Assembly: GCA_049304095.1 (NCBI GenBank)
Contig: JBAQNU010000029.1
Span: 98,222 to 162,221, forward strand
Length of the DNA stretch: 64,000 bases
Direction of reading: 5' to 3'
Origin: Candidatus Moraniibacteriota bacterium
GTDB lineage: Bacteria > Patescibacteriota > Minisyncoccia > Moranbacterales > UBA2206
Position numbers and translations under genes: made by a program. Below are positions 1,820-34,694 of the stretch, piece by piece. The notes beneath the pieces are model-generated. The model ran no database searches and had not been told where the DNA came from. It worked only from the letters and a program-made list of their open reading frames with translations. Position 1 is the stretch's first letter. The number at the start of each line of letters is the position of its first letter.

Positions 1820-2761
1820 ATGGATATCAAGGCATTGAAGACCGAATTTCTGGAATATATGGAAATTGAACGGTCGCGATCACAAAAAACGATTGAAAAC
1901 TATGATCACTATCTTAGTCGCTTTTTGGAATGGGCCAAAATTTCCCATCCCACTCAGATTACGGCGGAATTGGTCCGAAATTTTCGAGTCTATCTCAACC
2001 GCTACGAAGACGCCAATGGTCAAAAACTAAAAAAAGTCACCCAAGGGTTCTATGTAATCGCCCTGCGTAGCTTTTTGAAGTTTTTGGCGAAAAGGGACAT
2101 TTCCACTTTGCAAGCGGAAAAAATCGAAATTGGCAAAACCAGCGCGCGTGAAGTGGAGTTTTTGGAGATGAACGAAGTAGAGCGAATTTTGGCCGAGGCA
2201 GATGGAGCAGACCTCAGAAGTCTTCGTGATCGGGCCATTTTGGAACTTTTATTTTCCGCCGGTCTTCGGGTTTCAGAGTTGACCAATATTAATAGAGAAA
2301 GAATCGATCTTAAAGGACGAGAGCTCAGCGTGCGAGGCAAAGGCGACAAAGTGCGTGTGGTTTTCATTTCTGACTCGGCAGCGCAAGCGATTGCGAAATA
2401 TCTAGACAAGAGGACAGATGTCGATCCAGCGCTTTTTGTGCGTGATATTGCTGGTCTCAAGAAATTTGAAGGCAAAAACGCTAAAAATAAAGATATTTCT
2501 ACTGATTTGCGTCTAACGCCACGGTCAATCCAAAGAATTGTGAAATATTATGCAACTAAGGCAGGAATCGTCAAAGACGTCCATCCGCACACCCTGCGCC
2601 ATTCGTTCGCCACAGATTTATTAATCAATGGCGCTGATATCCGCTCAGTTCAAGCCATGCTTGGACATTCTTCCATCACCACGACGCAAGTTTATACCCA
2701 TGTTACTAACAAGCAACTGAAAGAAGTCCACGAGGCGTTTCATTCGCGGAGGAAGAAATAA
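1820..2761 (+). CDS. tyrosine site-specific recombinase, XerC/XerD family
   Basis: C-terminal catalytic motifs HTLRHSFATDLL ... GHSSITTTQVYTHV. Length 313 aa. Confidence 0.8.
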   Translation: MDIKALKTEFLEYMEIERSRSQKTIENYDHYLSRFLEWAKISHPTQITAELVRNFRVYLNRYEDANGQKLKKVTQGFYVIALRSFLKFLAKRDISTLQAEKIEIGKTSAREVEFLEMNEVERILAEADGADLRSLRDRAILELLFSAGLRVSELTNINRERIDLKGRELSVRGKGDKVRVVFISDSAAQAIAKYLDKRTDVDPALFVRDIAGLKKFEGKNAKNKDISTDLRLTPRSIQRIVKYYATKAGIVKDVHPHTLRHSFATDLLINGADIRSVQAMLGHSSITTTQVYTHVTNKQLKEVHEAFHSRRKK

Positions 2762-2764
2762 GTT

Positions 2765-3541
2765 CTAATTCAAATGCGTAGGTTCTTGATCTGCCGTAAT
2801 TGCCTTCCACATAAATTCAAAAAGTTCCTTATGCAAGCGGATGATATTTTTGTTTTCGATTACCATTGCTATAACCGGCAAGGTGGTTTGGTGGATGAGG
2901 ATTTTGCTTGGTGTAATGGTAATGGAAGCCGAGAGCTGCATATCTTGTGGAAAAATTTTTATCTGCAAATTATATATCGCTTCGTTTTGTTTATATTTTC
3001 TGGCAATTTCCGAATCTTGGAGTAAAAGACGGTTATTGAGCTTTTTTTGTGCGCGTTTTTCCACAAAATTTTCAAAAAATCTTTGGTCTTCTGACATCCA
3101 CTTGGCGGAATCGCTGATAACCCAATAATCCTCTCCGAATTTCACTTCATCTAGGAGATCTAGATGGATATTTTTCACCGCTTCCACGCCTTCGTAGTAT
3201 TTAATTAGACTGCTTCCACCTTCTGCGCTATAGAGCGCCTTGAAATCAACTAATGATTCTTGAAGCTCTTTTTTCTTATTATCCATTATTCTTTCCAATT
3301 TTTCCGGATTTTCCGCAGAAAAAAGGGTTTTCCAGCCGATCTGCTCAACTTTCATGAGGCCTAATTGCTTTAATGATTCAACCGCCGAATAAACGGTGGT
3401 TCTTTTGACTTCTGAGGCCTTGGAAATGGCTAGAATAGTGGTTTTTCCCAAAGAAAGCGCGCTCAAATAAACTAGCGCTTCATTATCGCTAAGCCCTAAA
3501 TTAAGCAGTACTTTGTATAGTTTATTGTCCATATTTGGCAT
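2765..3541 (-). CDS. TrmB-like HTH transcriptional regulator (paralog 1 of 5)
   Basis: N-terminal wHTH pattern LGLSDNEALVYLSALSLG...ISKASEVKRTTVY shared with four other ORFs in the window. Divergent from the small-ORF module. Confidence 0.6.
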   Translation of the reverse strand: MPNMDNKLYKVLLNLGLSDNEALVYLSALSLGKTTILAISKASEVKRTTVYSAVESLKQLGLMKVEQIGWKTLFSAENPEKLERIMDNKKKELQESLVDFKALYSAEGGSSLIKYYEGVEAVKNIHLDLLDEVKFGEDYWVISDSAKWMSEDQRFFENFVEKRAQKKLNNRLLLQDSEIARKYKQNEAIYNLQIKIFPQDMQLSASITITPSKILIHQTTLPVIAMVIENKNIIRLHKELFEFMWKAITADQEPTHLN

Positions 3542-3560: not shown

Positions 3561-3665
3561 ACTATTATTATCCTATATTAAAGTAAAAAATTAGTCAATA
3601 TATTTCTTTGTCGACATAAGTGACACAAGGGCGGTTTTGGTATATACTACGCTGTTAAGATAAAA

Positions 3666-3722
3666 CACCAAAAAAAAGACCAACCCAATCTTAACAAAAT
3701 CTAACCATTAACAAAAAAACCT
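3666..3722 (+). promoter_or_regulatory. conserved 5-prime leader (GTTAAGAT...ATCTTAAC stem, CTAACCATTAAC box), copy 1
   Basis: Same leader upstream of 5766 and 23398(-). Preceded by a TATACT -10 box. Confidence 0.5.
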
Positions 3723-3932
3723 ATGCAAATGCTATTAAACAACGGAGTGGTGATAAATGGTGCCCCAGTGATGTCAGAAAGAGCTAGAAAGTACCTTAGT
3801 CAGTTTTGGAGCTTTCCCTCAAAAGAAGAAATTGAGAAAGAAAAAGAAAAATACTACGTTTTTGACTATAAAGGAGAATGGACAAACAAAAGAGAAGAAA
3901 ACGTTAATGATGAACTAGAGATTCTCATATAG
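3723..3932 (+). CDS. conserved small protein (69 aa), family with 5766..5969 and 23195..23398
   Basis: Three paralogs (MxMLLNNG..ENAP..SE..RKYLxQFW..PSKEE). Third-position synonymous differences between copies indicate a coding constraint. No obvious SD. Confidence 0.55.
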   Translation: MQMLLNNGVVINGAPVMSERARKYLSQFWSFPSKEEIEKEKEKYYVFDYKGEWTNKREENVNDELEILI

Positions 3933-3940
3933 ATTCTAGT

Positions 3941-3996
3941 GGAAGACAAAAAAAAGAATTTCTGTCTTCCCTAGAGTTTATCTAAATCATTAGATA
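3941..3996 (+). promoter_or_regulatory. two conserved hairpins (GGAAGACA...TGTCTTCC and TATCTAA..TTAGATA) between small ORF and cargo; attenuator/terminator-like
   Basis: The same paired hairpins occur after the other two small-ORF copies. Compensatory changes preserve the stem. Confidence 0.45.
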
Positions 3997-4104
3997 GCTC
4001 AATAGTTATTTAAAAATTTAATATTCAGCTAAGACCTAGATTCGCATAGTGCGGATTCATTAGATGCTAAATTGGCTGAGAAAAATTAAAAAAGGAGAAG
4101 AAAA

Positions 4105-4503: not shown

Positions 4504-4669
4504 AACCACCAAAGCCGAATTTGTTAACACACAAATTCGGCTCCATTTTTGAAATCATTTCATTGACCACAAAAAACAAAGCGGAAAGCTTATCACAGCT
4601 CTCCGCTTTTTTTCTTTTTAATCTAAATCGTGGGACCAGCCCCGCCTCGGCGGGACGACCAAGAGATTA

Positions 4670-4746
4670 TGGTGGGACCAGCTGGATTCGAACCAGCGAC
4701 CAAGAAATTATGAGTTTCCTGCTCTAAACCGCTGAGCTATGGTCCC
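4670..4746 (-). tRNA. tRNA-Met/Ile2 (anticodon CAT), CCA encoded
   Basis: Cloverleaf read from sequence: GGGACCATAGCTCAGCGG...CTCATAA...GGTTCGAATCC...CCA. Confidence 0.8.
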
Positions 4747-4768: not shown

Positions 4769-5557
4769 CTATCCTTTGTTCGTGATTATGTCTAGACTTG
4801 GTGTGGGATATTGTTTTAATTTGATTTCTGGCAGATTGTCCCAGGCCAATTCAAAGATCCATCTTAGAGTGTTATTGATTTCTGCGCTTTCTATGATTAC
4901 CGCCATCTGTTCTTTACTGGAGATGAGAGCGACTTTTTGATGACCATAGATATCAACTTCGACCGAGAATGGATAGCGGTCTTTTTTAATTAGCTTGCAA
5001 GACCGCAGATGCTGTTGATCCCGGGTGATGATACTCTCAGACAGATATTTTGTTTCTGGCAGAATCGCCCGGACGCGGATATTTTTTTTGACTCGTTTTT
5101 TAATATACCACTCAATCCAATCTTCACCCAGAATATTCCTCACATCTTCTGATCCGAAAGCGAGAATTTCTCCGGAATAGCGTAGCGCGTCATCATAGGC
5201 CTCCATCAAGCCTTCTTTCCCTTCATAAAATTTAATCTTTGGCTTCATCCCGCGGACGTTATAGATGGATTTTAGTTGTGGTAGGATTTCTGAAAACAAA
5301 GCCTCTTTCTTTTCCAGATCCTTTTTGATTTTTTCTGGATCTTCGCCGATAAATAGTCTTTTGGCGCCATTTAGCGTTTCTGCCACCAACCCGGCATTTT
5401 TGAGATCCAAGAGAATGTCATAGGCGGTTGTTCTTTTGATATTGGCCTTTTTGGAAATATCAATGACACTGGCTCCGCCCAATTCCAAGGCTGCGAGATA
5501 TACATCGGCTTTTCGACCAGTGAGCCCAAATTGTTCAAGAGTTTGTTTAGTGTCCAT
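4769..5557 (-). CDS. TrmB-like HTH transcriptional regulator (paralog 2)
   Basis: N-terminal LGGASVIDISKKANIKRTTAY wHTH. Paralogous to 2765..3541. Confidence 0.6.
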   Translation of the reverse strand: MDTKQTLEQFGLTGRKADVYLAALELGGASVIDISKKANIKRTTAYDILLDLKNAGLVAETLNGAKRLFIGEDPEKIKKDLEKKEALFSEILPQLKSIYNVRGMKPKIKFYEGKEGLMEAYDDALRYSGEILAFGSEDVRNILGEDWIEWYIKKRVKKNIRVRAILPETKYLSESIITRDQQHLRSCKLIKKDRYPFSVEVDIYGHQKVALISSKEQMAVIIESAEINNTLRWIFELAWDNLPEIKLKQYPTPSLDIITNKG

Positions 5558-5676: not shown

Positions 5677-5705
5677 TTGACAATTGCGCCATTTCGCAGT
5701 ATAAT
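5677..5705 (+). promoter_or_regulatory. sigma70-like promoter TTGACA-17-TATAAT for small-ORF module 2
   Basis: Hexamers read directly. Leader follows. Confidence 0.5.
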
Positions 5706-5707
5706 GG

Positions 5708-5765
5708 GCTGTTAAGATAAAAAGCCAAGGCTAATCTTAACAAGCTAACCATTAACCAAAAATCT
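5708..5765 (+). promoter_or_regulatory. conserved 5-prime leader, copy 2
   Basis: GTTAAGATAAAAAGCCAAGGCTAATCTTAACAAGCTAACCATTAACC. Confidence 0.5.
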
Positions 5766-5969
5766 ATGAAAATGCTTTTGAATAATGGAACCGTAATTGA
5801 AAATGCTCCAGCTGTATCAGAAAAAACCAGAAAGTATCTCAATCAGTTCTGGAAGCTTCCCTCTAAAGAAGAAGTAGAAAAGAAAAAAGAGCAATATTAT
5901 GTTTCTGAGTATAAGGGAAAATGGAAAAAAGAGAAGGAAGTCGTAGTTGAACAAGAAATCACAATATAG
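5766..5969 (+). CDS. conserved small protein (67 aa), near-identical to 23195..23398
   Basis: 3 nt differences over 204 nt versus copy 3. Confidence 0.55.
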   Translation: MKMLLNNGTVIENAPAVSEKTRKYLNQFWKLPSKEEVEKKKEQYYVSEYKGKWKKEKEVVVEQEITI

Positions 5970-5978
5970 GTTCTAGCT

Positions 5979-6030
5979 GGAGACAGAAATGTTTTCTGTC
6001 TTCTCTAGAGTTTATCTAAAGTTTTGGATA
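5979..6030 (+). promoter_or_regulatory. paired conserved hairpins after small ORF (copy 2)
   Basis: GAGACAGAAA...TTTCTGTCTTC then TATCTAAAG..TTGGATA. Confidence 0.45.
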
Positions 6031-6080
6031 GCTCGTGCAGTTCTTTTAAAATCACCTACCTCAAAAAAAGGAAATGAAAT

Positions 6081-6437
6081 ATGAAAAAGTTTACTCTTAT
6101 TATTGGTCCAGTGGGGATTTTCGATCGAAAGACAGAAAAACTTCGGAAAAAAGCGGAATCAGTAGTAAAAATTCATTATGATGGGTCAATAATTGAAGAC
6201 CATGGGTCTAGGCGCTGGATGGGCCATAACTGGATGACTTGGCAAAAAGAAGAGATTAAAAGTCTCATAATTGAACCGATTGTGGTGTTTGTGGGTTTTG
6301 CGAGTTGTTCTTGCTGTACGAAGTATGAAACATGGGACATGGTAGTTGAATTAAGTAAGGATTTGAAAAAAATGGGGAAAAGAGTTTCTTTTATTGATAA
6401 CAATAATAATAAATCTGTATTTAGAAAGAGGAGGTGA
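6081..6437 (+). CDS. hypothetical protein (variable cargo of module 2)
   Basis: ORF with an SD. Cys-rich CSCC motif. No recognised domain. Confidence 0.4.
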   Translation: MKKFTLIIGPVGIFDRKTEKLRKKAESVVKIHYDGSIIEDHGSRRWMGHNWMTWQKEEIKSLIIEPIVVFVGFASCSCCTKYETWDMVVELSKDLKKMGKRVSFIDNNNNKSVFRKRR

Positions 6438-6682
6438 TTGAAAAATAAAGGTTTTTGGGAAGTTTATCCTTGGCCACCACGGCCAAAAAACTTCCCACAT
6501 TTTCTCGAGTTCGTCTGAAGTTTCAGGCGGATTCAAGCGAAATGAAGTTCATTAAAAATCAAATATCAGCTAAGGCCCTCTCCAGAATTATTTCGGAGGC
6601 TGTCAGGCAGTAATGTCTGATGTATCAAAGAGTGGAGCTACACTGGCTGAAAAATAGTTTTTGTAGAAAAAGGAGTTTGAAA

Positions 6683-7129
6683 ATGAGTGGAAGAGACAAA
6701 ATTACAGAACAGTTGGCCTCTAATGGTGTAAGTATGGATGAGATTCGGAGTAACTTTGAAGGTCTTATTAGGTGTTATCGCAACAATGAGTTTAGGAGCG
6801 ATTACTCCTTCGTGGAAATAAAAGTGGTAGAGAAAAAAGAATTTGGGTGGGTAGTTTTAATTGAAGATTACTCAAACCAAACATCATGCACTGTTGTAAG
6901 GTCTGAGCTGTTTGTCGTAAGCGAGGGAAAAATAATATCAAAAAGCAAACGAGTTTTTGTGGGGGTATGGAATAAGTGTCCAAAAGAGTGGACACTGGAA
7001 TCGATTTCAGAAACCGATGACGCTTTCATCGTTATCGGGAAGCCTTTTGGAAAGGAGGTGTTGAAAAAATCGGATAAGTTTTTTCCGCGTTGCCCACTTT
7101 CAGGCAAGTGGGAAGAGTTCTTTGTTTAA
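6683..7129 (+). CDS. hypothetical protein
   Basis: ORF. Start chosen at the ATG after the AAAGGAG SD. Confidence 0.4.
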   Translation: MSGRDKITEQLASNGVSMDEIRSNFEGLIRCYRNNEFRSDYSFVEIKVVEKKEFGWVVLIEDYSNQTSCTVVRSELFVVSEGKIISKSKRVFVGVWNKCPKEWTLESISETDDAFIVIGKPFGKEVLKKSDKFFPRCPLSGKWEEFFV

Positions 7130-7254
7130 CTACAAACCGACTTCGAGCCAAGTCGTAAAACATGGCTTTTTTTATTTGTAATAAAACGAAAAAACACCCC
7201 ACATAATATTGAGTGCATAAATAATTATGACTGCAAGTGAAGTGAATTTTTTTG

Positions 7255-21499: not shown

Positions 21500-21555
21500 T
21501 GGATAAAATAAAAAAAGCCATGTTTAGAGACTTGGCTTGAAGTCTTTTTTGTCTA
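21500..21555 (-). terminator. repeated terminator-containing element (AGACTT-CAAGCC-AAGTCT ... AGCCATGTTTAGAGACTTGGCT), copy 1
   Basis: Near-identical to 22598..22655. Confidence 0.45.
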
Positions 21556-21726
21556 CACCTCCTTTTTGGGTGTTTTGGTCAGATGGCGACCAAGGCCGTG
21601 CGAGAGATTTCGCGTGATGATCGCAATAACAGCGTGTTTCAGGCTGTTTTTTCGCATATTTTTATATGCTTCGCGAGCATCCTCTTCGGAACCATTTCTG
21701 ATTTTGTCGAAGAGCTCATCATCCAT
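21556..21726 (-). CDS. possible small ORF (57 aa) overlapping the stop of 21719..22504
   Basis: Read by hand (MDDELFDKIRNGSEEDAREAYKNMRKN...). AGGAGG-like SD. Below the size cut of the ORF track. Confidence 0.25.
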
Positions 21727-22504
21727 TTTCTATCACCTCCTTTCCGAGTAAGTATGCAATTCTTGGTGAATATTTCTCTTCAACCATTCTAATATATTTC
21801 TCATCTCTTGTCAGGAGATGGAGAAAATACATTGATCTGGCTGTTGGGCGAACGGCTAGGGTTTCCTGCGCCAGTCTGATTGCCTCTTGTTCTTCGTTCA
21901 CCAAAAGCAAATAGCTGGATAGGTTTTCTTTGGTGGCAATCATTCCTGGGCAAATCTTTTCCGCTTCGGCTAGAATCCTTATTTTGCAATAGGGATTTTT
22001 TTCCAGCCAAGCCTGGGAGATCATTCTTGAAGCTGTAACTGCTTCCCAAAAAGGAAGCGCCTTAATCTTTGGGTGAGAAACGTTCCTTTCGAATGGAATG
22101 GAAAGTGGTTCAAATTGTTTTCCATCAACGACGAGCACACTGTGTGGCTCCTCATACATCAGGAGCTCCTCGAAAAAGGAATCTGGCTGGTCAGGGTTTC
22201 CCCGAAGCATATCCAAAAGGATATTGCGAAAAAAATCCTCCAGTACTTCGCCAAACATGATTTTGGCATTCGGGAATTCTTTTTCCACAACCGCTCCGGC
22301 TTGAGCCACCTTTCCCAGACAACCGCGATTATCTAGGCTCAGGTTGTAATTTGCAATCTGGTGCTGGTCGATACTTTGACCAGTGGAAAAATCAAAAGGG
22401 AAATTTTTCAGTAGCGCAAACGCGGCGCTGAAATTTTTTTCATATTTTTTTCCTTCGACTAGTCTGTGAGCGATTTCCCGGACTTCCTGAACTATTTTTA
22501 ACAT
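21719..22504 (-). CDS. hypothetical protein
   Basis: ORF only. Confidence 0.4.
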   Translation of the reverse strand: MLKIVQEVREIAHRLVEGKKYEKNFSAAFALLKNFPFDFSTGQSIDQHQIANYNLSLDNRGCLGKVAQAGAVVEKEFPNAKIMFGEVLEDFFRNILLDMLRGNPDQPDSFFEELLMYEEPHSVLVVDGKQFEPLSIPFERNVSHPKIKALPFWEAVTASRMISQAWLEKNPYCKIRILAEAEKICPGMIATKENLSSYLLLVNEEQEAIRLAQETLAVRPTARSMYFLHLLTRDEKYIRMVEEKYSPRIAYLLGKEVIENG

Positions 22505-22597
22505 ACCGCACCCCCTTCGTTGAATTTTGTAGGAACTTCAAAGCCAAGGCTTCGACTCAATATGGTAGCATTATTTGTTTGGATTGTCCAGCCAGTA

Positions 22598-22655
22598 AAA
22601 TAAAAAAAGCCATGTTTAGAGACTTGGCTTAAAGTCTTTTTGTTTACAATTCCTT
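22598..22655 (-). terminator. repeated terminator-containing element, copy 2
   Basis: Near-identical to 21500..21555. Immediately downstream of 22678..23094(-). Confidence 0.45.
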
Positions 22656-22677
22656 TTAAGCTTGTAAAGTGTTATTT

Positions 22678-23094
22678 TTAAACCTCAAGTTCGTTTTCTC
22701 CGAATCCGAAGCGAATGAAAAGTTTTCCTTCTGCTTTTCGTATAGAGGTTACTTTTGTAGACATGCGAAACCCAATCACTCCGTCATGGGTGGTTCTATA
22801 CAGACACATCCCGTACCGATCTCCAATGACACGAGGGTCGTTTCCTGATAAATCTACAACAACCGCGAACCTTGTGGAATAGTCTTCGGTTGATCCTCCA
22901 GATCTTCCACTAAAACAATTGGTGGACCATGCTTGTTTTGCAACAACCATGATGTCATCTTCTCTGCTCACTTGATACATACCGCCGTTGTCGGTGCCGA
23001 ATAATCCCCTGACAAATGCTGCGGTTGCAGTGTCTGTCAGTTTTTCTGCGGCACTTTCCAAGTCCGCCAATCTTACTTGTTCCGATGTTTCCAT
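22678..23094 (-). CDS. hypothetical protein (variable cargo of module 3), GC-rich
   Basis: ORF with a GAGGAG SD. Follows the conserved hairpins. Confidence 0.4.
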   Translation of the reverse strand: METSEQVRLADLESAAEKLTDTATAAFVRGLFGTDNGGMYQVSREDDIMVVAKQAWSTNCFSGRSGGSTEDYSTRFAVVVDLSGNDPRVIGDRYGMCLYRTTHDGVIGFRMSTKVTSIRKAEGKLFIRFGFGENELEV

Positions 23095-23133
23095 CTTTTA
23101 TCTCCTCATTCTAAGTTTTTAAATAACCAGCCT

Positions 23134-23186
23134 ATCTAACCAATTTAGATAAACTCTAGAAAAGACAGAAAACATTTCTGTCTCCA
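23134..23186 (-). promoter_or_regulatory. paired conserved hairpins after small ORF (copy 3)
   Basis: TATCTAACCAATTTAGATA and AGACAGAAAACATTTCTGTCT. Confidence 0.45.
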
Positions 23187-23194
23187 GCTAGAAC

Positions 23195-23398
23195 CTATAT
23201 TGTGATTTCTTGTTCAACTACGACTTCCTTCTCTTTTTTCCATTTTCCCTTATACTCAGAAATATAATATTGCTCTTTTTTCTTTTCTACTTCTTCTTTA
23301 GAGGGAAGCTTCCAGAACTGATTGAGATACTTTCTGGTTTTTTCCGATACAGCTGGAGCATTTTCAATTATGGTTCCATTATTCAAAAGCATTTTCAT
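23195..23398 (-). CDS. conserved small protein (67 aa), copy 3
   Basis: Near-identical to 5766..5969. Confidence 0.55.
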   Translation of the reverse strand: MKMLLNNGTIIENAPAVSEKTRKYLNQFWKLPSKEEVEKKKEQYYISEYKGKWKKEKEVVVEQEITI

Positions 23399-23478
23399 AG
23401 ATTCTTGGTTAATGGTTAGTTTTGTTAAGATTAGCCTTGGCTTTTTTGGCTTTTTATCTTAACAACGTAGTATACACC
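23399..23478 (-). promoter_or_regulatory. conserved 5-prime leader, copy 3 (with a 9-bp AAAAAAGCC duplication)
   Basis: Reverse complement matches the copy 2 leader. Confidence 0.5.
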
Positions 23479-23656
23479 AATTTAAGCTAATCGTCAACAA
23501 ATATGCCTAAAAATGGTGGAAATAATCTACTAAAAATAGTCATATTAAGCTTAAAATAAAGCAACAAGTATTTTGATAACAGAATAGTTGTCAAAAACGT
23601 TGACTATTATGCTAAATCGTGCTAAAATAGGAACATAAGCAATAAATCGCGCAATT

Positions 23657-24436
23657 ATGGAACATTTGATTGAACCACTGAAAAACTTAGGACTAAGCGA
23701 AAAAGAAGTGCTGGTCTATCTGGCATTACTTCAACTTGGCTCAGCGACGCCCTATCAGGTTGCCAAAAAATCGGGGATTAAAAGGCCAACAGCCTATGTG
23801 ATTGCGGAAGAATTGGTAAAAAAAGGTTTGGTTGTGCATATTCCTGGCGAAGAAAAAAAGCGCTATATTGCCAAAAACCCGGATGCTTTTTTTGAAGAGC
23901 AAGAAGAAAAACTGGCAATGGCGAGAAAAATCTTGCCAGAACTGCGCTCATATCAGAAAAATGTGGCGGAAAAACCGAGCATATTGTATTTCGAAGGGCT
24001 TGAGGGATTGCATCAAGCCTATGAGTATCGGCAGAAAGAGCTGCATGGAAGGGAGATCGTGGGATTTTTTGCATCTAATGAGGACTCAACGCCTGAAGTG
24101 ACGCAGTATTTTGTGAAATGGAATGAATATCGAGAAAAACATAATACGCCGGTGCGGGGAATTACAGTCGATGCGCCGGAGCTTTTGCCTTATGCTAAAT
24201 TTTTTGGAGAAGGCGTGGGAGCTATGACACTTAAATTTTTGCCTCGCAATATGTATGGTTCTAAAATTTCCATCGAATCTTGTGATAATCAATTTGTGCG
24301 CATATTCCTTTTTGAAAGCGTGGAAACGCTAATTATTGAGTCGCCAAAATTTGCAGTGGCCGTAAAAGAAATCTTTGAATTAGTCTGGAAATCGACGGAG
24401 GGGAAATATGAAAAGCCGGCGACGTGGGTTAGGTAG
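23657..24436 (+). CDS. TrmB-like HTH transcriptional regulator (paralog 4)
   Basis: LGLSEKEVLVYLALLQLGSATPYQVAKKSGIKRPTAY. Confidence 0.6.
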   Translation: MEHLIEPLKNLGLSEKEVLVYLALLQLGSATPYQVAKKSGIKRPTAYVIAEELVKKGLVVHIPGEEKKRYIAKNPDAFFEEQEEKLAMARKILPELRSYQKNVAEKPSILYFEGLEGLHQAYEYRQKELHGREIVGFFASNEDSTPEVTQYFVKWNEYREKHNTPVRGITVDAPELLPYAKFFGEGVGAMTLKFLPRNMYGSKISIESCDNQFVRIFLFESVETLIIESPKFAVAVKEIFELVWKSTEGKYEKPATWVR

Positions 24437-26669: not shown

Positions 26670-28340
26670 ATGAAAACAGACATTCAAATTGCAAAAGAGT
26701 CAAAGATGGAACCGATCGAAAGTGTGGCGGATAAAATTGGTCTTGCGAAAAGTGATCTGGAATTGTATGGAGACCATAAAGCTAAACTGAAACCACAGCT
26801 ATGGGAAAAAATTAAAAAGCAAAAAAATGGAAAGCTAATTTTGGTGACAGCAATCAGCCCAACTCCTGCCGGAGAGGGAAAAACGACGACTTCGATAGGC
26901 CTCGCAATGGCGATGAATCGGTTGGGAAAAAAAACAATGCTGGCTCTGCGCGAGCCGTCACTTGGACCGTGCATGGGCGTGAAGGGTGGTGCGGCTGGTG
27001 GAGGATACGCGCAGGTGATGCCGATGGAAGAAATCAATTTGCATTTTACGGGCGATTCGCATGCGATTACCACTGCCAATAATTTACTCTCGGCCATTAT
27101 TGATAATCACATTTTTCAAGGCAACGAGTTGCAAATTGACGCGCGGCAAATTCTGTGGAAGCGGGCAATGGATCTCAATGACCGGACGTTGCGAAGCATG
27201 GTGGTTGGCTTGGGTGGAAAATCACAGGGCGTGCCACGGGAAGAAAGTTTTAATATTACCGTTGCATCAGAGATTATGGCCATTCTTTGTCTTAGTGATA
27301 ATTTAGCCGATCTCAAAAAACGATTAGGAAATATTTTGGTGGCTTATACTTTTTCTGGTGAACCGGTTTATGCGCGTTCTCTGAAAGTTGTCGGAGCGCT
27401 CACAGCAATTCTGAAAGACGCGCTCAAGCCAAATCTTGTGCAAACATTGGAACATACGCCAGCCATTATTCATGGCGGACCGTTTGCCAACATTGCACAC
27501 GGATGCAACAGTATTTTGGCAACACGCTATGGATTAAAATTGGGTGACTATCTCGTGACAGAAGCCGGTTTTGGCGCAGATCTTGGAGCGGAGAAATTTT
27601 TCAATATCAAGTGTCGCGTCGCGGGACTGAAGCCGGATGCGGTCGTGATTGTGGCGACAGTGCGGGCACTGAAATATTCTGGTGGAATGGAGAAAGAAGC
27701 TCTTGTGATGCCAAGTCTACCGCACCTTAAAAAAGGTTTTGCTAATCTGGAAAAACATGTGGAAAATTTGAAAAAATTTGGCGTGCCGGTGGTGGTCGCT
27801 GTAAATGTTTTTCCGACTGATACGCAAAAAGAATTGAAATTGCTCGAACAGATGGTGAAGAAGCTGGGCGCTGCCTACGCGCTTTCGCACGTTTGGGAAA
27901 GGGGCGGAGCAGGTGGAGAAGATTTAGCCGAAGTTGTTTTGGAAACGCTGGCCAAGAAAAAAGCGAATTTCAAAGTGCTCTATTCTGAGCAGTCGCATAT
28001 CAAAGTGAAAATTGAAACTATCGCGCAAAAAATTTATGGCGCGAAAAATGTGGAGTTCAGCGCCAAAGCCCAAAAACAAATGGAAAAATTAGAAAAAGAT
28101 AAATTGGACAAATTACCAATCTGCATCGCGAAAACCCAATATTCTTTTTCCGATGATCCAAAACTCTTGGGACGACCGAAGGGCTTTACTTTGAACATTC
28201 GAGAACTGAGAATTTCCAACGGCGCCGGATTCATCGTGGCAATCGCCGGAGAAATTATGACCATGCCAGGACTACCAAAAGTGCCTGCAGCGGAAAAGAT
28301 TGATGTGAGTGAAGATGGGGAGATTGAGGGGTTGTTTTAG
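26670..28340 (+). CDS. fhs: formate--tetrahydrofolate ligase
   Basis: [15 protein letters not shown] and the rest of the Fhs signature. Start at the internal ATG to avoid overlap. Confidence 0.9.
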
Positions 28341-28716
28341 AATATACTATTGACAGTAACAGATCTATTATGTAAAGTGTAAGCAATGATTGTGTGAAAG
28401 CCTCCCTTTGTAACACTGGCCCTAGTGTTTGGCGGTGGGTCACTTTTTACAGGTGGCATGGTCGATCGAAGCATGATCGCGGGAGACGAGAGGGCTTCAT
28501 TATAAACCCAGACCGATAGCTAAGGTTAGTTAGGAGGTATTTCGCCTGGTGCGAAGTCTAGAACCGAAGCTTCGGGTGCTCAGTAACGGCGCGGTAGCGC
28601 AATCATTTTCTCAAAGGCCCTGCTCTATAAATTAGTGCGGGTCTTGTTCTTTTATTAGTGTAAGTTGAAGTTAAAATTAACTTTGATTATCCACGAAAAA
28701 CAATGGGAGGAGATTA

Positions 28717-33550: not shown

Positions 33551-33623
33551 GGATCCTTAGCTCAATGGCTAGAGCACCTCGTTTACACCGAGGGGGTTAT
33601 AGGTTCGAGTCCTATAGGGTCCA
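33551..33623 (+). tRNA. tRNA-Val (TAC)
   Basis: GGATCCTTAGCTCAATGGCTAGAGCACCTCGTTTACACCGAGG...GGTTCGAGTCC. Confidence 0.8.
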
Positions 33624-33627
33624 CAGA

Positions 33628-33950
33628 GCCGAGTTAGCTCAGTGGTAGAGCAGAGGACTGATTTTCGGTCCGCTCTGAAGTAATTCAGAGATGAGAATTG
33701 GATGAATTCGAGGAAGCCTAAAACTAATTTTATTAGAAATGGTAATCTCGAGCTAAGCTTCAAAGGGCGTAAGGTTTTGAAGAAAGTGTAGAGACTAGCA
33801 AGTGAGTCCCAACAATAATCTTGCATTAGCGTCCGATATCCTATTTTGCTAAGTAGCAAAAGGATAATGAAATAGTCCGATCCTTGGGGAAACTCAAGAA
33901 AAATGAGTAGGAAAATCCTTGTGTCCCCGGTTCAATCCCGGGACTCGGCA
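33628..33950 (+). tRNA. tRNA-Phe (GAA) interrupted by a ~251-nt intron between positions 33 and 34
   Basis: Exons GCCGAGTTAGCTCAGTGGTAGAGCAGAGGACT / GAAAATCCTTGTGTCCCCGGTTCAATCCCGGGACTCGGCA closely match a canonical bacterial tRNA-Phe. Confidence 0.7.
33660..33910 (+). other. putative group I self-splicing intron in the tRNA-Phe anticodon loop
   Basis: 5-prime exon ends in U paired with a G of the internal guide GGUCC (P1 GGACU/GGUCC). Intron ends in G. R-like AGAGACUAGC and S-like AAUAGUCCG elements. No ORF. Confidence 0.55.
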
Positions 33951-34010: not shown

Positions 34011-34694
34011 ATGAGAAAAGATAAAGTCAAAGCGCTAGCGCTTAGAAAAAAAGGTTTTAGCTATAATGAAATTAGCAAAAAACTAGAAGTTCCTAAAAGC
34101 ACGCTAAGTTATTGGTTGGCAGATGTAGTAATTTCACAAAAAGCGAAAAACAGAATTGCAAGTAGGGTTTTTGCAGGAAGTGTGAAGGGGCTGATTGAGA
34201 GAAATAAAAATCAAACGGCACTAGCGAAAGAAAGAGCAAAAGCTATTCGAGAAATTGCAAAGAAAGAAGTTAGAAATTTAATGAAAAACAAATTATTTTT
34301 GGTGGGCATTTCCCTGTATTGGGCGGAGGGATATAAAAAGGGTGCTTATGGAAGTAAATGGAAAGCAGTGGATTTTGCCAATTCCGATCCTGAGTTAGTG
34401 AAAATAATGATGAATTTTTTCAGAAAAGTTTGCAGAGTAGAAAGTGAAAAGATAAAAGTTCAGCTAATTGCTCATAAAAATATTGATATGGACGAAGCGG
34501 TGAGCTATTGGTCTGGGCTTATGAAATTATCGAAAAGTCAGTTCATGAAAACAAGTTGTGCGGTGAGTAGCGCGAGCAAAGGCAAGAGAAACAAAAACAG
34601 TTTGACGCACGGAACAGTTCATATTAGGATAAATGATGTAAGGCTATTTTTTCGGATTATTGGCTGGATCGATGGATTGAAGTTGTATATATAG
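34011..34694 (+). CDS. HTH-containing protein with a single LAGLIDADG-like motif (LFLVGISLYWAEGY); candidate free-standing homing endonuclease
   Basis: N-terminal HTH (GFSYNEISKKLEVPKSTLSYWL). Motif resembles the LAGLIDADG core. Position next to the intron-containing tRNA. Confidence 0.35.
   Translation: MRKDKVKALALRKKGFSYNEISKKLEVPKSTLSYWLADVVISQKAKNRIASRVFAGSVKGLIERNKNQTALAKERAKAIREIAKKEVRNLMKNKLFLVGISLYWAEGYKKGAYGSKWKAVDFANSDPELVKIMMNFFRKVCRVESEKIKVQLIAHKNIDMDEAVSYWSGLMKLSKSQFMKTSCAVSSASKGKRNKNSLTHGTVHIRINDVRLFFRIIGWIDGLKLYI

Follow-up and report, generated by a model that had tools for sequence, protein, structure and literature searches.

We studied a window of 64,000 nucleotides (nt), which is the whole stretch of DNA analysed here, from contig JBAQNU010000029.1 of a Candidatus Moraniibacteriota bacterium, and in it a leader module that consists of a gene for a small protein (67 amino acids (aa) in the copy of main interest) and several predicted RNA hairpins. 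Self-comparison of the 64-kb window placed this module (~330 nt) at three positions, 3637-4020 and 5719-6034 on the plus strand and 23112-23480 on the minus strand; they are called copies 1, 2 and 3, and the genes of their units are numbered accordingly. The near-identity of copies 2 and 3 is the main subject of this study. The comparisons presented below show a common layout for what are, as predicted elements, a sigma70-type promoter, a 5' hairpin, the small gene, two further hairpins, cargo genes with their own ribosome-binding sites and a unit-specific terminator; a regulator gene of the TrmB family lies divergently upstream. Related loci in other genomes are denoted by L and a number. The features of the modules and their regulators are as follows.

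3637-4020, plus strand: copy-1 module, with small1 at 3723-3932; it adjoins the regulator gene reg1 (2765-3541, minus strand).
4769-5557, minus strand: reg2, the TrmB-family regulator of the copy-2 unit (PF01978), 56-59% identical to the regulators of L012, L014 and L036.
5710-6020, plus strand: predicted gene-conversion tract, copy-2 side, containing the 5' hairpin (5711-5741), small2 (5766-5969), hairpin 1 (5969-6012) and the 5' arm of hairpin 2.
23133-23151, minus strand: predicted hairpin 2, 6-7 base pairs (bp); the tract ends in its loop, and its 3' arm is native copy-3 sequence.
23144-23464, minus strand: predicted gene-conversion tract, copy-3 side.
23152-23195, minus strand: predicted hairpin 1, 17 bp, the first pair of which includes the last base of the stop codon of small3.
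23195-23398, minus strand: small3, gene for the conserved 67-aa protein, without a Shine-Dalgarno sequence.
23424-23463, minus strand: predicted 5' leader hairpin, GUUAAGAU-loop-AUCUUAAC, at the predicted transcript start.
23469-23497, minus strand: copy-3 promoter-like site TTGACG-17-TATACT, 5 nt upstream of the conserved GTTAAGAT, a position kept in 15 module copies.
23657-24436, plus strand: reg3, TrmB-family winged-helix regulator of 259 aa, divergent from the copy-3 module.

In self-BLAST, positions 5719-6020 (plus strand) match 23446-23144 (minus strand) with 97.7% identity over 303 nt, with 6 mismatches and 1 gap. Inspection by eye and local alignment placed the start of the shared tract at TGTTAAGAT (5710 in copy 2 and 23464 in copy 3) and its end at TTTATCTAAA (6020 and 23144), so that the tract has 311 nt in copy 2 and 321 nt in copy 3. 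Over this whole length the two copies are distinguished by 6 substitutions, one 9-nt indel and one 1-nt indel. An earlier sequence-only reading of this DNA had counted three differences in the 204-nt coding sequence, and exactly three were found, two of them Val/Ile replacements and one synonymous; a substitution in hairpin 1 preserves the pair (G-C to G.U). Copy 1 is ~76% identical to either of the other copies. Beyond the tract, copies 2 and 3 could not be aligned on either flank, and the ends are abrupt: on the 5' side the tract opens with the 5' hairpin, 5 nt 3' of the -10 hexamers, and on the 3' side it stops within the hairpin-2 loop. The same reading had named identity extending into the flanking genes as the observation that would speak for a simple segmental duplication; no such identity was found, the two regulators being 28% identical and the downstream open reading frames (ORFs) of the cargo not matching, as had been stated. 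The upstream promoters had also been called unrelated, and indeed the promoter-like sites identified by consensus scan (TTGACA-17-TATAAT in copy 2 and TTGACG-17-TATACT in copy 3, with the -10 hexamers at 5700-5705 and 23474-23469, respectively) have only the hexamers in common; however, they are of the same kind, the three loci being ancient paralogues of one architecture. The 9-nt indel, AAAAAAGCC, is located in the leader. It is real, but its interpretation as a duplication in copy 3 did not hold: the long form is present in copy 3 and in the copy-3 orthologues L001, L016 and L002, and for this reason the indel is a deletion in copy 2 between AAAAAGCC repeats.

Near-identity of this kind might be attributed to extreme purifying selection, since the tract is under overlapping protein-coding and RNA-structure constraints, or to an assembly artefact. 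The proportion of differing synonymous sites (pS) between small2 and small3 is 0.027 (1 of 37 sites), compared to 0.6-0.9 in the other pairs of paralogues, all of which are saturated, to 0.77 for the adjacent reg2 and reg3, and to 0.35-0.6 between orthologues. This contrast points to recent copying and not to selection. With respect to assembly, there are 8 sites of difference between the two copies, each of which has flanks of its own, and L035, an independent assembly from another sequencing run, agrees with the window at every base of a stretch that begins within reg2, crosses the promoter and includes the short-loop leader; its contig stops where the repeated small gene begins, as a repeat would lead one to expect. 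The left junction of copy 2 is therefore no assembly artefact, and copy-3-type sequence was found in L001 and L016. Thus, neither selection nor misassembly is a credible source of the identity.

The loci of copies 2 and 3 lie 17 kb apart in inverted orientation, and both are syntenic with relatives. The copy-3 locus shares with L001, L002 and L016 the order CCA-adding enzyme gene, TrmB gene, small gene, cargo, a gene for a metallo-beta-lactamase-fold protein and gyrA; copy 2 lies between tRNA-Met and tRNA-Val, as it does in L022 and L036. This conserved gene order argues against a crossover and against segmental duplication. Furthermore, the 3' arm of hairpin 2 and the downstream leader CAGTTCTTTTAAAATCACCTAC of copy 2 are native to that locus, being common to its orthologue L036, and the TATAAT promoter of copy 2 is similar to those of L022 and L036. 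Since native sequence is found on both sides of the copy-2 tract, a diverged, pre-existing module was overwritten rather than a new one inserted, and the end of the tract then marks the limit of homology between the paralogues. We regard these comparisons as showing that a tract of ~310 bases was copied between old paralogous loci, in what we interpret as non-crossover homologous recombination (gene conversion).

The polarity of this event is less clear. The allele type ...KGKWKKEKE..ITI is present at all four reg3-type loci sampled, whereas the other reg2-type loci have either ...REIHRRTDQ..P types (L012, L014 and L022) or no small gene (L036). Because of this distribution, copy 2 would carry copy-3-type sequence, and not the reverse; this conclusion is weakened by the observations that follow. 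Copy 2 is the less derived of the two, with 1 private substitution and 2 private indels (the 9-nt deletion in the loop and a 1-nt gap that is absent from L001 and L016), compared to 5 private substitutions in copy 3, one of them common to L016. The distant genome of L030 has a different small-gene type at its copy-3 locus, so that the link between type and locus is not absolute, and no close relative with an intact copy-2 module is among the recovered loci. We had considered a transfer from copy 3 to copy 2 based on the type of the C-terminal tail alone; this argument is weakened by the tail type of L030, and the per-site comparison puts copy 2 in the central position.

The sequence-only reading had proposed a comparison of strains, and it proved informative: the small gene and the adjacent regulator have discordant histories here and in several relatives. 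Between the window and L016, reg3 differs at 17 of 777 positions and the small gene at 19 of 201, a significant excess (P = 3.6e-5). Between the window and L001 the numbers are 50 of 777 and 5 of 201, a significant deficit (P = 0.0012); for copy 2 and the small gene of L001, there are 2 differences in 201 positions. Given this discordance of the copy-3 small gene with the history of reg3, an L001-like allele appears to have been imported from another strain as well. If one import is accepted, two may be considered, that is, the same allele could have arrived independently at both loci, with no exchange between copies 2 and 3 inside the genome. The 2-nt distance between the coding sequences of copy 2 and L001, the discordance of the copy-3 small gene with reg3, and the exchange between lineages that clearly happens at these loci are all compatible with such a history. 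However, the leader-loop states GCCAAGGCTAATC are common to copies 2 and 3 and absent from the relatives, L001 and L016 among them, so that the two leaders are closest to each other, and a history with one import is more economical. We consider two separate imports unlikely. The simplest history would combine one import with one internal conversion.

To place the modules of the window in a wider context, we recovered ~30 further copies, with 2-6 copies per genome that are sometimes arranged in tandem (L007, L008 and L030). Practically all of them have a divergent TrmB gene 170-520 nt upstream (this count leaves out one distant homologue that is known without its DNA). In L032, which encodes a 48% identical homologue, the TrmB partner is present and these hairpins are absent. 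The cargo varies, including stand-alone receiver domains, an operon of SLOG, NAPRTase and methyltransferase genes, and many orphan genes. Other genomes keep 4-5 divergent copies, and the family is not homogenised as a whole.

The loci of the relatives are mosaics. At the copy-3 locus, the window, L016, L001 and L002 carry different cargo in the interval from module end to terminator, with flanks that are 87-94% identical, and the promoter of the window is closer to that of L002 than to that of L016. At the copy-2 locus, the window and L036 have regulators with 59% aa identity, and cargo2b with its terminator is 98-100% identical at the nucleotide level, in a block that ends ~15 nt past the terminator. 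In L022, the same chromosomal slot holds the receiver-domain cargo that L012 and L014 carry at another site. A block of 2 kb (L007 2150-4150 versus L008 4390-6390) is 98-100% identical in a background of ~78% between metagenome-assembled genomes (MAGs) of different species; it spans one small gene, its cargo and most of the next regulator, which may indicate recent recombination between lineages or cross-assembly. The similarity of copy 1 of the window to L013 and L015 is diffuse. Together with the 2-kb block, this case suggests that tracts limited to the module are not the rule. Overall, the mosaics show that the regulator, the leader module and the cargo cassettes recombine independently of one another, both inside a strain and from strain to strain; the breakpoints lie in the conserved non-coding elements, namely the leader hairpins and the terminator. 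It should be noted that the copy-2 loci of L036 (3999-5001), L037 and L038, which come from three samples, consist of a TrmB gene, a promoter and a 5' hairpin of their own, followed by the downstream leader and a homologue of cargo2a. All three lack the small gene together with hairpins 1 and 2, apparently a natural loss of the small gene at one locus.

The claim that the module moves or recombines as a unit was thus correct in one sense: exchange transfers it whole, among loci that differ in regulator, promoter and cargo. It is not mobile, being always found in the same TrmB-divergent context, with no transposase and no target-site duplications. A check for short repeats at the junctions had been proposed; we found no flanking direct repeats there (the junctions read GGGC...GTTT in copy 2 and ACGT...TTGG in copy 3). 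Insertion of a small non-autonomous mobile element, either similar to a miniature inverted-repeat transposable element (MITE) or a site-specific cassette, between the promoter and the cargo of copy 2 might nevertheless be suggested by the loosely inverted ends of the module (TTAAGATAAA at the 5' end compared to the reverse complement TTTAGATAAA at the 3' end), by the absence of a small gene between the 5' hairpin and cargo2a in L036-L038, and by the tyrosine recombinase gene that adjoins copy 1. However, the inverted similarity is loose (9 of 10 positions) and is part of two RNA hairpins, and the lack of flanking direct repeats has just been mentioned. L036 has its own 5' hairpin together with the downstream leader of the window, and in copy 2 of the window the 3' arm of hairpin 2 is still the diverged, native one; deletion in L036 and overwriting in the window fit this pattern. 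All of the ~30 copies occupy the same position relative to the TrmB gene, only three are present in 64 kb and none in viral contigs, and the encoded protein is under purifying selection. The recombinase is kept with and without copy 1, as expected for a housekeeping Xer enzyme. For these reasons, we consider a mobile element very unlikely and gene conversion the better reading of the copy-2 junctions. The recombinase gene itself (1820-2761, plus strand; Phage_integrase and SAM-like N-terminal domains) is 4 nt from the end of reg1 and is retained at this site in genomes with copy 1 (L013 and L015) and without it (L022 and L036); whether a copy-1 unit lies in the interval from this gene to tRNA-Met differs from genome to genome. 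It probably encodes a housekeeping Xer enzyme. We also dropped a phage origin of the module, as a search of viral contigs found no relatives.

The two hairpins behind the small gene are well supported by covariation. In the alignment of 17 sequences, 98% of the cells of hairpins 1 and 2 are paired, compared to at most 54% with slid partners, and 7 pairs are changed on both sides, compared to 2.4 in shuffled alignments (none of 500 shuffles was as high). Hairpin 1 accounts for 5 of these pairs (98.6% of cells paired; fold z-score -3.3) and hairpin 2 for the other 2 (96% paired). One U.G pair in hairpin 1 is invariant in 17 of 17 copies, and this pair and the other wobble pairs are therefore compatible only with an RNA structure of the sense strand. 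Competing structures exist as well. Hairpin 2 can be extended by pairing of GAG from the foot of hairpin 1 with a conserved downstream CUC in 15-16 of the 17 copies; the extension and the base of hairpin 1 cannot form together, and in copy 3 itself the extension is disrupted. In predictions with the 5' arm of hairpin 1 kept unpaired, the state that a terminating ribosome would impose, most copies fold into the extended hairpin 2. A conserved U-rich sequence, AGUUAUUUAAAAA, lies 3' of hairpin 2, and a third helix can be formed by UAGAUAGCU with AGUUAUUUA, involving the 3' arm of hairpin 2 and the U-rich tract. The competing extension and the third helix are paired in 84-96% of cells, without informative covariation, whereas hairpins 1 and 2 covary. 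Searches of the window modules and 12 related loci against Rfam, at both gathering and permissive thresholds, produced no match to the module; the matches elsewhere in the searched sequence were tRNAs and one group I intron only. A covariance model of the 3' hairpins found exactly three copies in the 64-kb window. As a separate observation, the stop codon of cargo2a is followed, at 6437-6530, by a pair of hairpins laid out like hairpins 1 and 2 (GGGAAGUU..AACUUCCC and GUCUGAA..UUCAGGC) and then by AAGUUCAUUAAAAAU, so that the motif of ORF, two hairpins and U-rich sequence recurs within the copy-2 operon, ahead of cargo2b.

The 5' leader hairpin has 8 bp in 15 of 15 aligned copies, with one compensatory pair, several G.U pairs that are valid on the sense strand only and a loop of 14-27 nt. 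An alternative that we examined, in which the conserved palindromes are operators for the TrmB proteins, was rejected as the main interpretation in view of the sense-strand-only G.U pairs, the variable loop and the identity of only 25-30% among the regulators.

The small ORF is a real coding gene, as the median ratio of nonsynonymous to synonymous substitution rates (dN/dS) is 0.11 in the first 50 codons of 17 copies, with synonymous sites near saturation. The protein has 66-69 aa across the family; its N-terminal 45 residues are strongly conserved (LNNG..I..AP..SEKTRKYL.QFW.FPSKEE.EKEKEKYY) and its tail is variable. It is rich in Lys, Glu and aromatic residues, and the F-W residues are invariant. 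Homologues are rare (13 among 1.84 billion cluster representatives and 24 in a database of 5.8 billion sequences), and all named sources are Candidatus Moraniibacteriota. A fourth small gene of the same MAG (locus tags WA064_), WA064_04575, is located outside the window and is 82% identical to small2. No match was found in Pfam, NCBIfam or PADLOC for the small protein and for all cargo of the window; for the small protein, the sequence-profile search of the PDB was empty as well, and Foldseek against the PDB had no match at E<1. AlphaFold2 predicts a beta-hairpin and two helices, with a mean confidence score (pLDDT) of 62 for an alignment of 10 sequences and 67 for one of 27. All copies of the small gene lack a Shine-Dalgarno sequence; the cargo genes carry GGAG-type sites. 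A literature search on TrmB in Parcubacteria and on small proteins of Moranbacteria found nothing.

All three regulators of the window match PF01978 (49.6, 42.9 and 63.1 bits for reg1, reg2 and reg3, cut-off 25.6). The identity of reg3 to reg1 and reg2 is 25-29%, and its closest PDB relative is TrmB (3QPH), over the N-terminal 105 residues only. The sugar-binding C-terminal domain of TrmB/TrmBL1 was not detected: NCBIfam scores are 17-38 bits, compared to cut-offs of 500-650, with alignment of the N-terminus alone, and the C-terminal 150 residues had no recognisable match in Pfam, NCBIfam and PDB searches. PADLOC reported weak matches of the regulators to Csa3/CasR-type models at the level of the winged helix-turn-helix, and none for the small protein or the cargo; by this measure, the units are not anti-phage defence systems.

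The cargo genes and terminators of the copy-2 and copy-3 units are as follows.

6081-6437, plus strand: cargo2a, 118 aa, identical to NCBI protein WA064_05050.
6683-7129, plus strand: cargo2b, 148 aa, with the start at 6683 and not at the mechanical ORF start 6620 (AAGGAG 7 nt before ATG).
7139-7177, plus strand: T, third copy of the predicted terminator, at the end of the copy-2 unit.
21504-21566, minus strand: T2, second copy of the predicted terminator, where synteny with L001 and L002 restarts.
21553-21726, minus strand: cargo3c, 57 aa, sharing 8 nt with the 3' end of cargo3b, with conserved counterparts in L016 and L030.
21719-22504, minus strand: cargo3b, 261 aa, with a promoter-like site TGGACA-17-TACCAT at 22590-22562; conserved in L016 and L030.
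22596-22657, minus strand: T1, predicted unit-specific intrinsic terminator AGCCAaGU..ACaUGGCU followed by U7, the right-hand breakpoint of cargo replacement compared to L016.
22678-23094, minus strand: cargo3a, 138 aa, with its own GAGGAG ribosome-binding site and no family matches.

The repeated terminator element that had been reported at the copy-3 locus is real: the two sequences are 92% identical, and a third copy ends the copy-2 unit, so that there are 3 copies of this ~45-nt element in 64 kb (pattern scan; 0 expected by chance). They follow cargo3a, cargo3c and cargo2b, always in sense orientation, and in relatives the element was likewise found at the ends of units or cargo only, always in sense. 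A simple terminator scan misses it, since its loop exceeds 8 nt; with a hairpin and a run of U at a gene 3' end, it has the predicted features of a rho-independent terminator. Other parts of the earlier description of the cargo need correction. The order of the genes is 138, 261 and 57 aa rather than 138, 57 and 261 aa; the 138-aa ORF, said to be GC-rich, has a G+C content of 45%, compared to 41% for the window; and the supposed single operon is divided by the terminator and a conserved promoter-like site into the 138-aa gene and the pair of 261 and 57 aa. Because a terminator copy directly follows cargo3a, the cargo3b/cargo3c pair is probably a separate transcription unit. L011 has a homologue of cargo3b next to the gene for the CCA-adding enzyme, without a TrmB unit. 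A foreign origin of cargo3a, which a high G+C content might have suggested, was rejected given the small difference in composition and a homologue of 137 aa at the same locus in the distant genome L030; other genes are found there in L001, L002 and L016. The orthologue of cargo2b in L036 is identical at 146 of 148 residues, with nucleotide identity of 98-100% from 6620 to just past the terminator. The 169-aa ORF that opens at 6620 most likely has its true start at 6683, the upstream part (6620-6682) being structured RNA. A mechanical ORF at 4521-4727 overlaps tRNA-Met (4670-4746, minus strand) and is no gene.

Additional RNA elements were noted in the untranslated regions of the cargo. A three-stem RNA is found in cargo 5' untranslated regions at 6566-6650 of the window (before cargo2b), as a short variant at 4021-4085 (before cargo1a), and in relatives (L036 5471-5560, L010 3434-3525, L025 4296-4390 and L023 4284-4400). 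Its stem P1 (UCAGCUA/UGGCUGA) closes a junction with P2 (CUCUCC/GGAGG) and P3 (GUCAG/CUGAU), and the single-stranded GUAUUAAAGAGUGGAGC is conserved; 4 pairs are changed on both sides in 5 sequences, and there is no Rfam match, which makes it a candidate for a new cis-regulatory RNA or riboswitch. A recurrent small hairpin, (U)GCCGC-YUGUAUC-GGCGGGG with UAGAAAUGGAG after it, lies immediately next to the ribosome-binding sites of first cargo genes that are unrelated to one another, in L001 (4760-4805), L009, L010, L012, L014, L020, L022 and L025; it has no Rfam match at the gathering threshold and is absent from the window. A hairpin resembling repetitive extragenic palindromic (REP) elements, CCUGUAGAGACGC-N-GCGUCU, follows the terminator in L002 (~7080), L011 (~5230), L016 (~5975), L025 (~2230) and L030 (~2970), and is not present at the corresponding sites of the window.

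With respect to function, the arrangement of these elements suggests a model in which the divergent TrmB paralogue would control the module promoter and the 5' hairpin would protect the end of the mRNA. The distance between hairpin 2 and the start of the cargo is 27-38 nt in copies 2 and 3, and there is no good promoter in between; because of this, the small gene and the cargo would be co-transcribed, and hairpins 1 and 2 would act within a transcript. Together with the U-rich tract, they may form a leaky terminator or attenuator, in which ribosome occupancy at the end of the small ORF would select between the alternative pairings and thereby set the read-through into the cargo. The small protein may act in trans on a target common to all units, because it is nearly the same at loci whose regulators have only 28% identity and because in one relative the local gene has disappeared from a locus that retains the promoter, the 5' hairpin and the cargo. 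We propose this joint model tentatively and with limited confidence.

Several observations count against this interpretation. The extension of hairpin 2 is invariant and therefore provides no covariation signal, and the pairing of the third helix (84%) is not above that in shuffles. No canonical U-tract follows hairpin 1, and the terminator scan is silent there; in L001, hairpin 2 is missing its 3' arm entirely; and no fold could be recognised for the small protein (pLDDT 67, without a structural match). The lack of covariation in the alternative pairings would be explained if hairpins 1 and 2 were mainly a processing or stability element, that is, a barrier to 3' exonucleases, without any translation-sensing switch. 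Together with the 5' hairpin, they would then yield a long-lived monocistronic mRNA of the small gene, and the small protein would far outnumber the cargo proteins. The stable, covarying hairpin right after the stop codon, the 5'-terminal hairpin, and the similar pair of hairpins between cargo2a and cargo2b agree with such a role, whereas it leaves unexplained why AGUUAUUUAAAAA is conserved and why the extended hairpin 2 overlaps hairpin 1 at its base. It should be noted that a stabilising role is compatible with attenuation, the two not being mutually exclusive; we consider it a possible, although somewhat unlikely, principal function.

The joint exchange of the protein gene and the hairpins may also be seen as co-inheritance of a protein and its binding sites. 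The small protein would then bind its own hairpins as an antiterminator or a translational regulator of the cargo, similar to lambda N and the nut sites. In addition to the joint exchange, its Lys/Glu/aromatic-rich composition with invariant F-W and the presence of identical proteins at loci with different regulators are in line with this possibility, and AUCUUAACAAA after the 5' hairpin may be loosely boxA-like. However, Pfam, Foldseek and PDB profile searches revealed no RNA-binding fold or motif, L036 carries this cargo at a locus that has neither the 3' hairpins nor a small gene, and L032 has the protein and the TrmB gene without these hairpins. We find such binding doubtful. The overall explanation that combines a lineage-specific leader module, gene conversion between copies 2 and 3, mosaic units and the proposed function is, in our assessment, the best available and probably correct. 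A bolder reading is that the leader module and the unit terminator form an exchangeable-cassette system of bacteria of the candidate phyla radiation (CPR), which would place a portable control cassette, made of a stabilising 5' hairpin, the small protein acting in trans and a hairpin switch that senses translation, before accessory genes under TrmB paralogues; the ends would double as homology arms by which leaders and cargo could be exchanged from locus to locus and from strain to strain, without a dedicated recombinase, and the small protein would be a new RNA- or RNA-polymerase-binding regulator of its own hairpins. This is speculative, and we think it improbable in its entirety.

Two other regions of the window should be mentioned. 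A group I intron (33650-33899; 75 bits in Rfam, cut-off 50) is located 26 nt after tRNA-Val(TAC) (33551-33624) in a tRNA cluster and is followed by a 227-aa ORF (34011-34694) with an N-terminal helix-turn-helix. Between the formate-tetrahydrofolate ligase gene and a small ORF there are ~300 nt of G+C-rich, hairpin-rich non-coding sequence (28340-28660), behind a TTGACA promoter-like site and with no Rfam match even at E<1; in the equivalent interval, L012 and L014 have a reg2-type TrmB unit.

The exchange described here has parallels in known systems. Ectopic gene conversion is known from tufA/tufB in Salmonella, rRNA operons and the transfer from pilS to pilE in Neisseria. The tract of copies 2 and 3 is similar in that it is a short, near-identical, non-crossover tract in diverged paralogues, bounded by the limits of homology, with disagreement between the phylogenies of gene and flanks; it differs in that the converted unit is the regulatory leader of operons with different regulators and cargo, and not a housekeeping gene or an antigen. 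The near-identity itself is ordinary ectopic gene conversion. Cassette replacement by flanking homology, as in the 'minimal mobile elements' of Neisseria and in pneumococcal capsule switching, resembles our case in the presence of different gene sets in one slot, breakpoints in conserved flanks and near-identical cargo in otherwise diverged lineages. Unlike those systems, the flanks here are short and non-coding (a leader of ~320 nt and a terminator of ~45 nt) and are repeated at several loci per genome. In principle, this would allow a cassette to reach another locus, and not just another strain. Natural transformation is not known in these organisms. Integrons (intI, attI and attC) also have a fixed promoter-proximal element followed by variable cassettes that end in the same hairpin element; however, neither copy 2 nor copy 3 has an integrase nearby, the repeated element of ~45 nt is a simple hairpin plus U7 that lacks the paired R and L boxes of attC, and homology explains the exchange.

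The leader-peptide attenuators of trp, his and pheST share with the module an upstream ORF that stops where a hairpin begins, candidate alternative pairings that overlap, a U-rich tract and promoterless downstream genes. In contrast, the ORF here has 66-69 codons, evolves with a dN/dS of 0.11 and contains no run of regulatory codons, the putative terminator is non-canonical, and covariation supports hairpins 1 and 2 only. As for the regulators, TrmB, TrmBL1 and TrmBL2 of Thermococcales have in common with them an N-terminal winged helix above the Pfam cut-off, a length of ~260 aa (as in TrmBL2) and a position divergent from the presumed target; the C-terminal domain here matches nothing, and the proteins are bacterial (CPR), with 3-6 paralogues per small genome, nearly always together with the small gene. 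Thus, the unit does not belong to the transposons, integrons, defence systems or classical leader peptides, each of these assignments failing in at least one defining feature. What is new is an undescribed unit of a small protein, RNA hairpins and a TrmB regulator, present in multiple copies in a CPR lineage, the parts of which recombine independently.

CPR bacteria have tiny genomes with few recognisable regulators, and the control of their accessory genes is almost unknown. The strain-variable genes behind the unit include stand-alone receiver domains and genes of NAD salvage and methyltransferases. If the module were a mere stabiliser or terminator that is homologous among the loci, the finding would shrink to ordinary gene conversion. 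In the reading preferred here, copies 2 and 3 record the latest event that can be seen in a history of independent recombination of regulator, leader and cargo, and this pair contributes to a concrete picture of the rewiring of accessory genes in an uncultivated lineage, with three candidate RNA elements and one candidate family of regulatory proteins.

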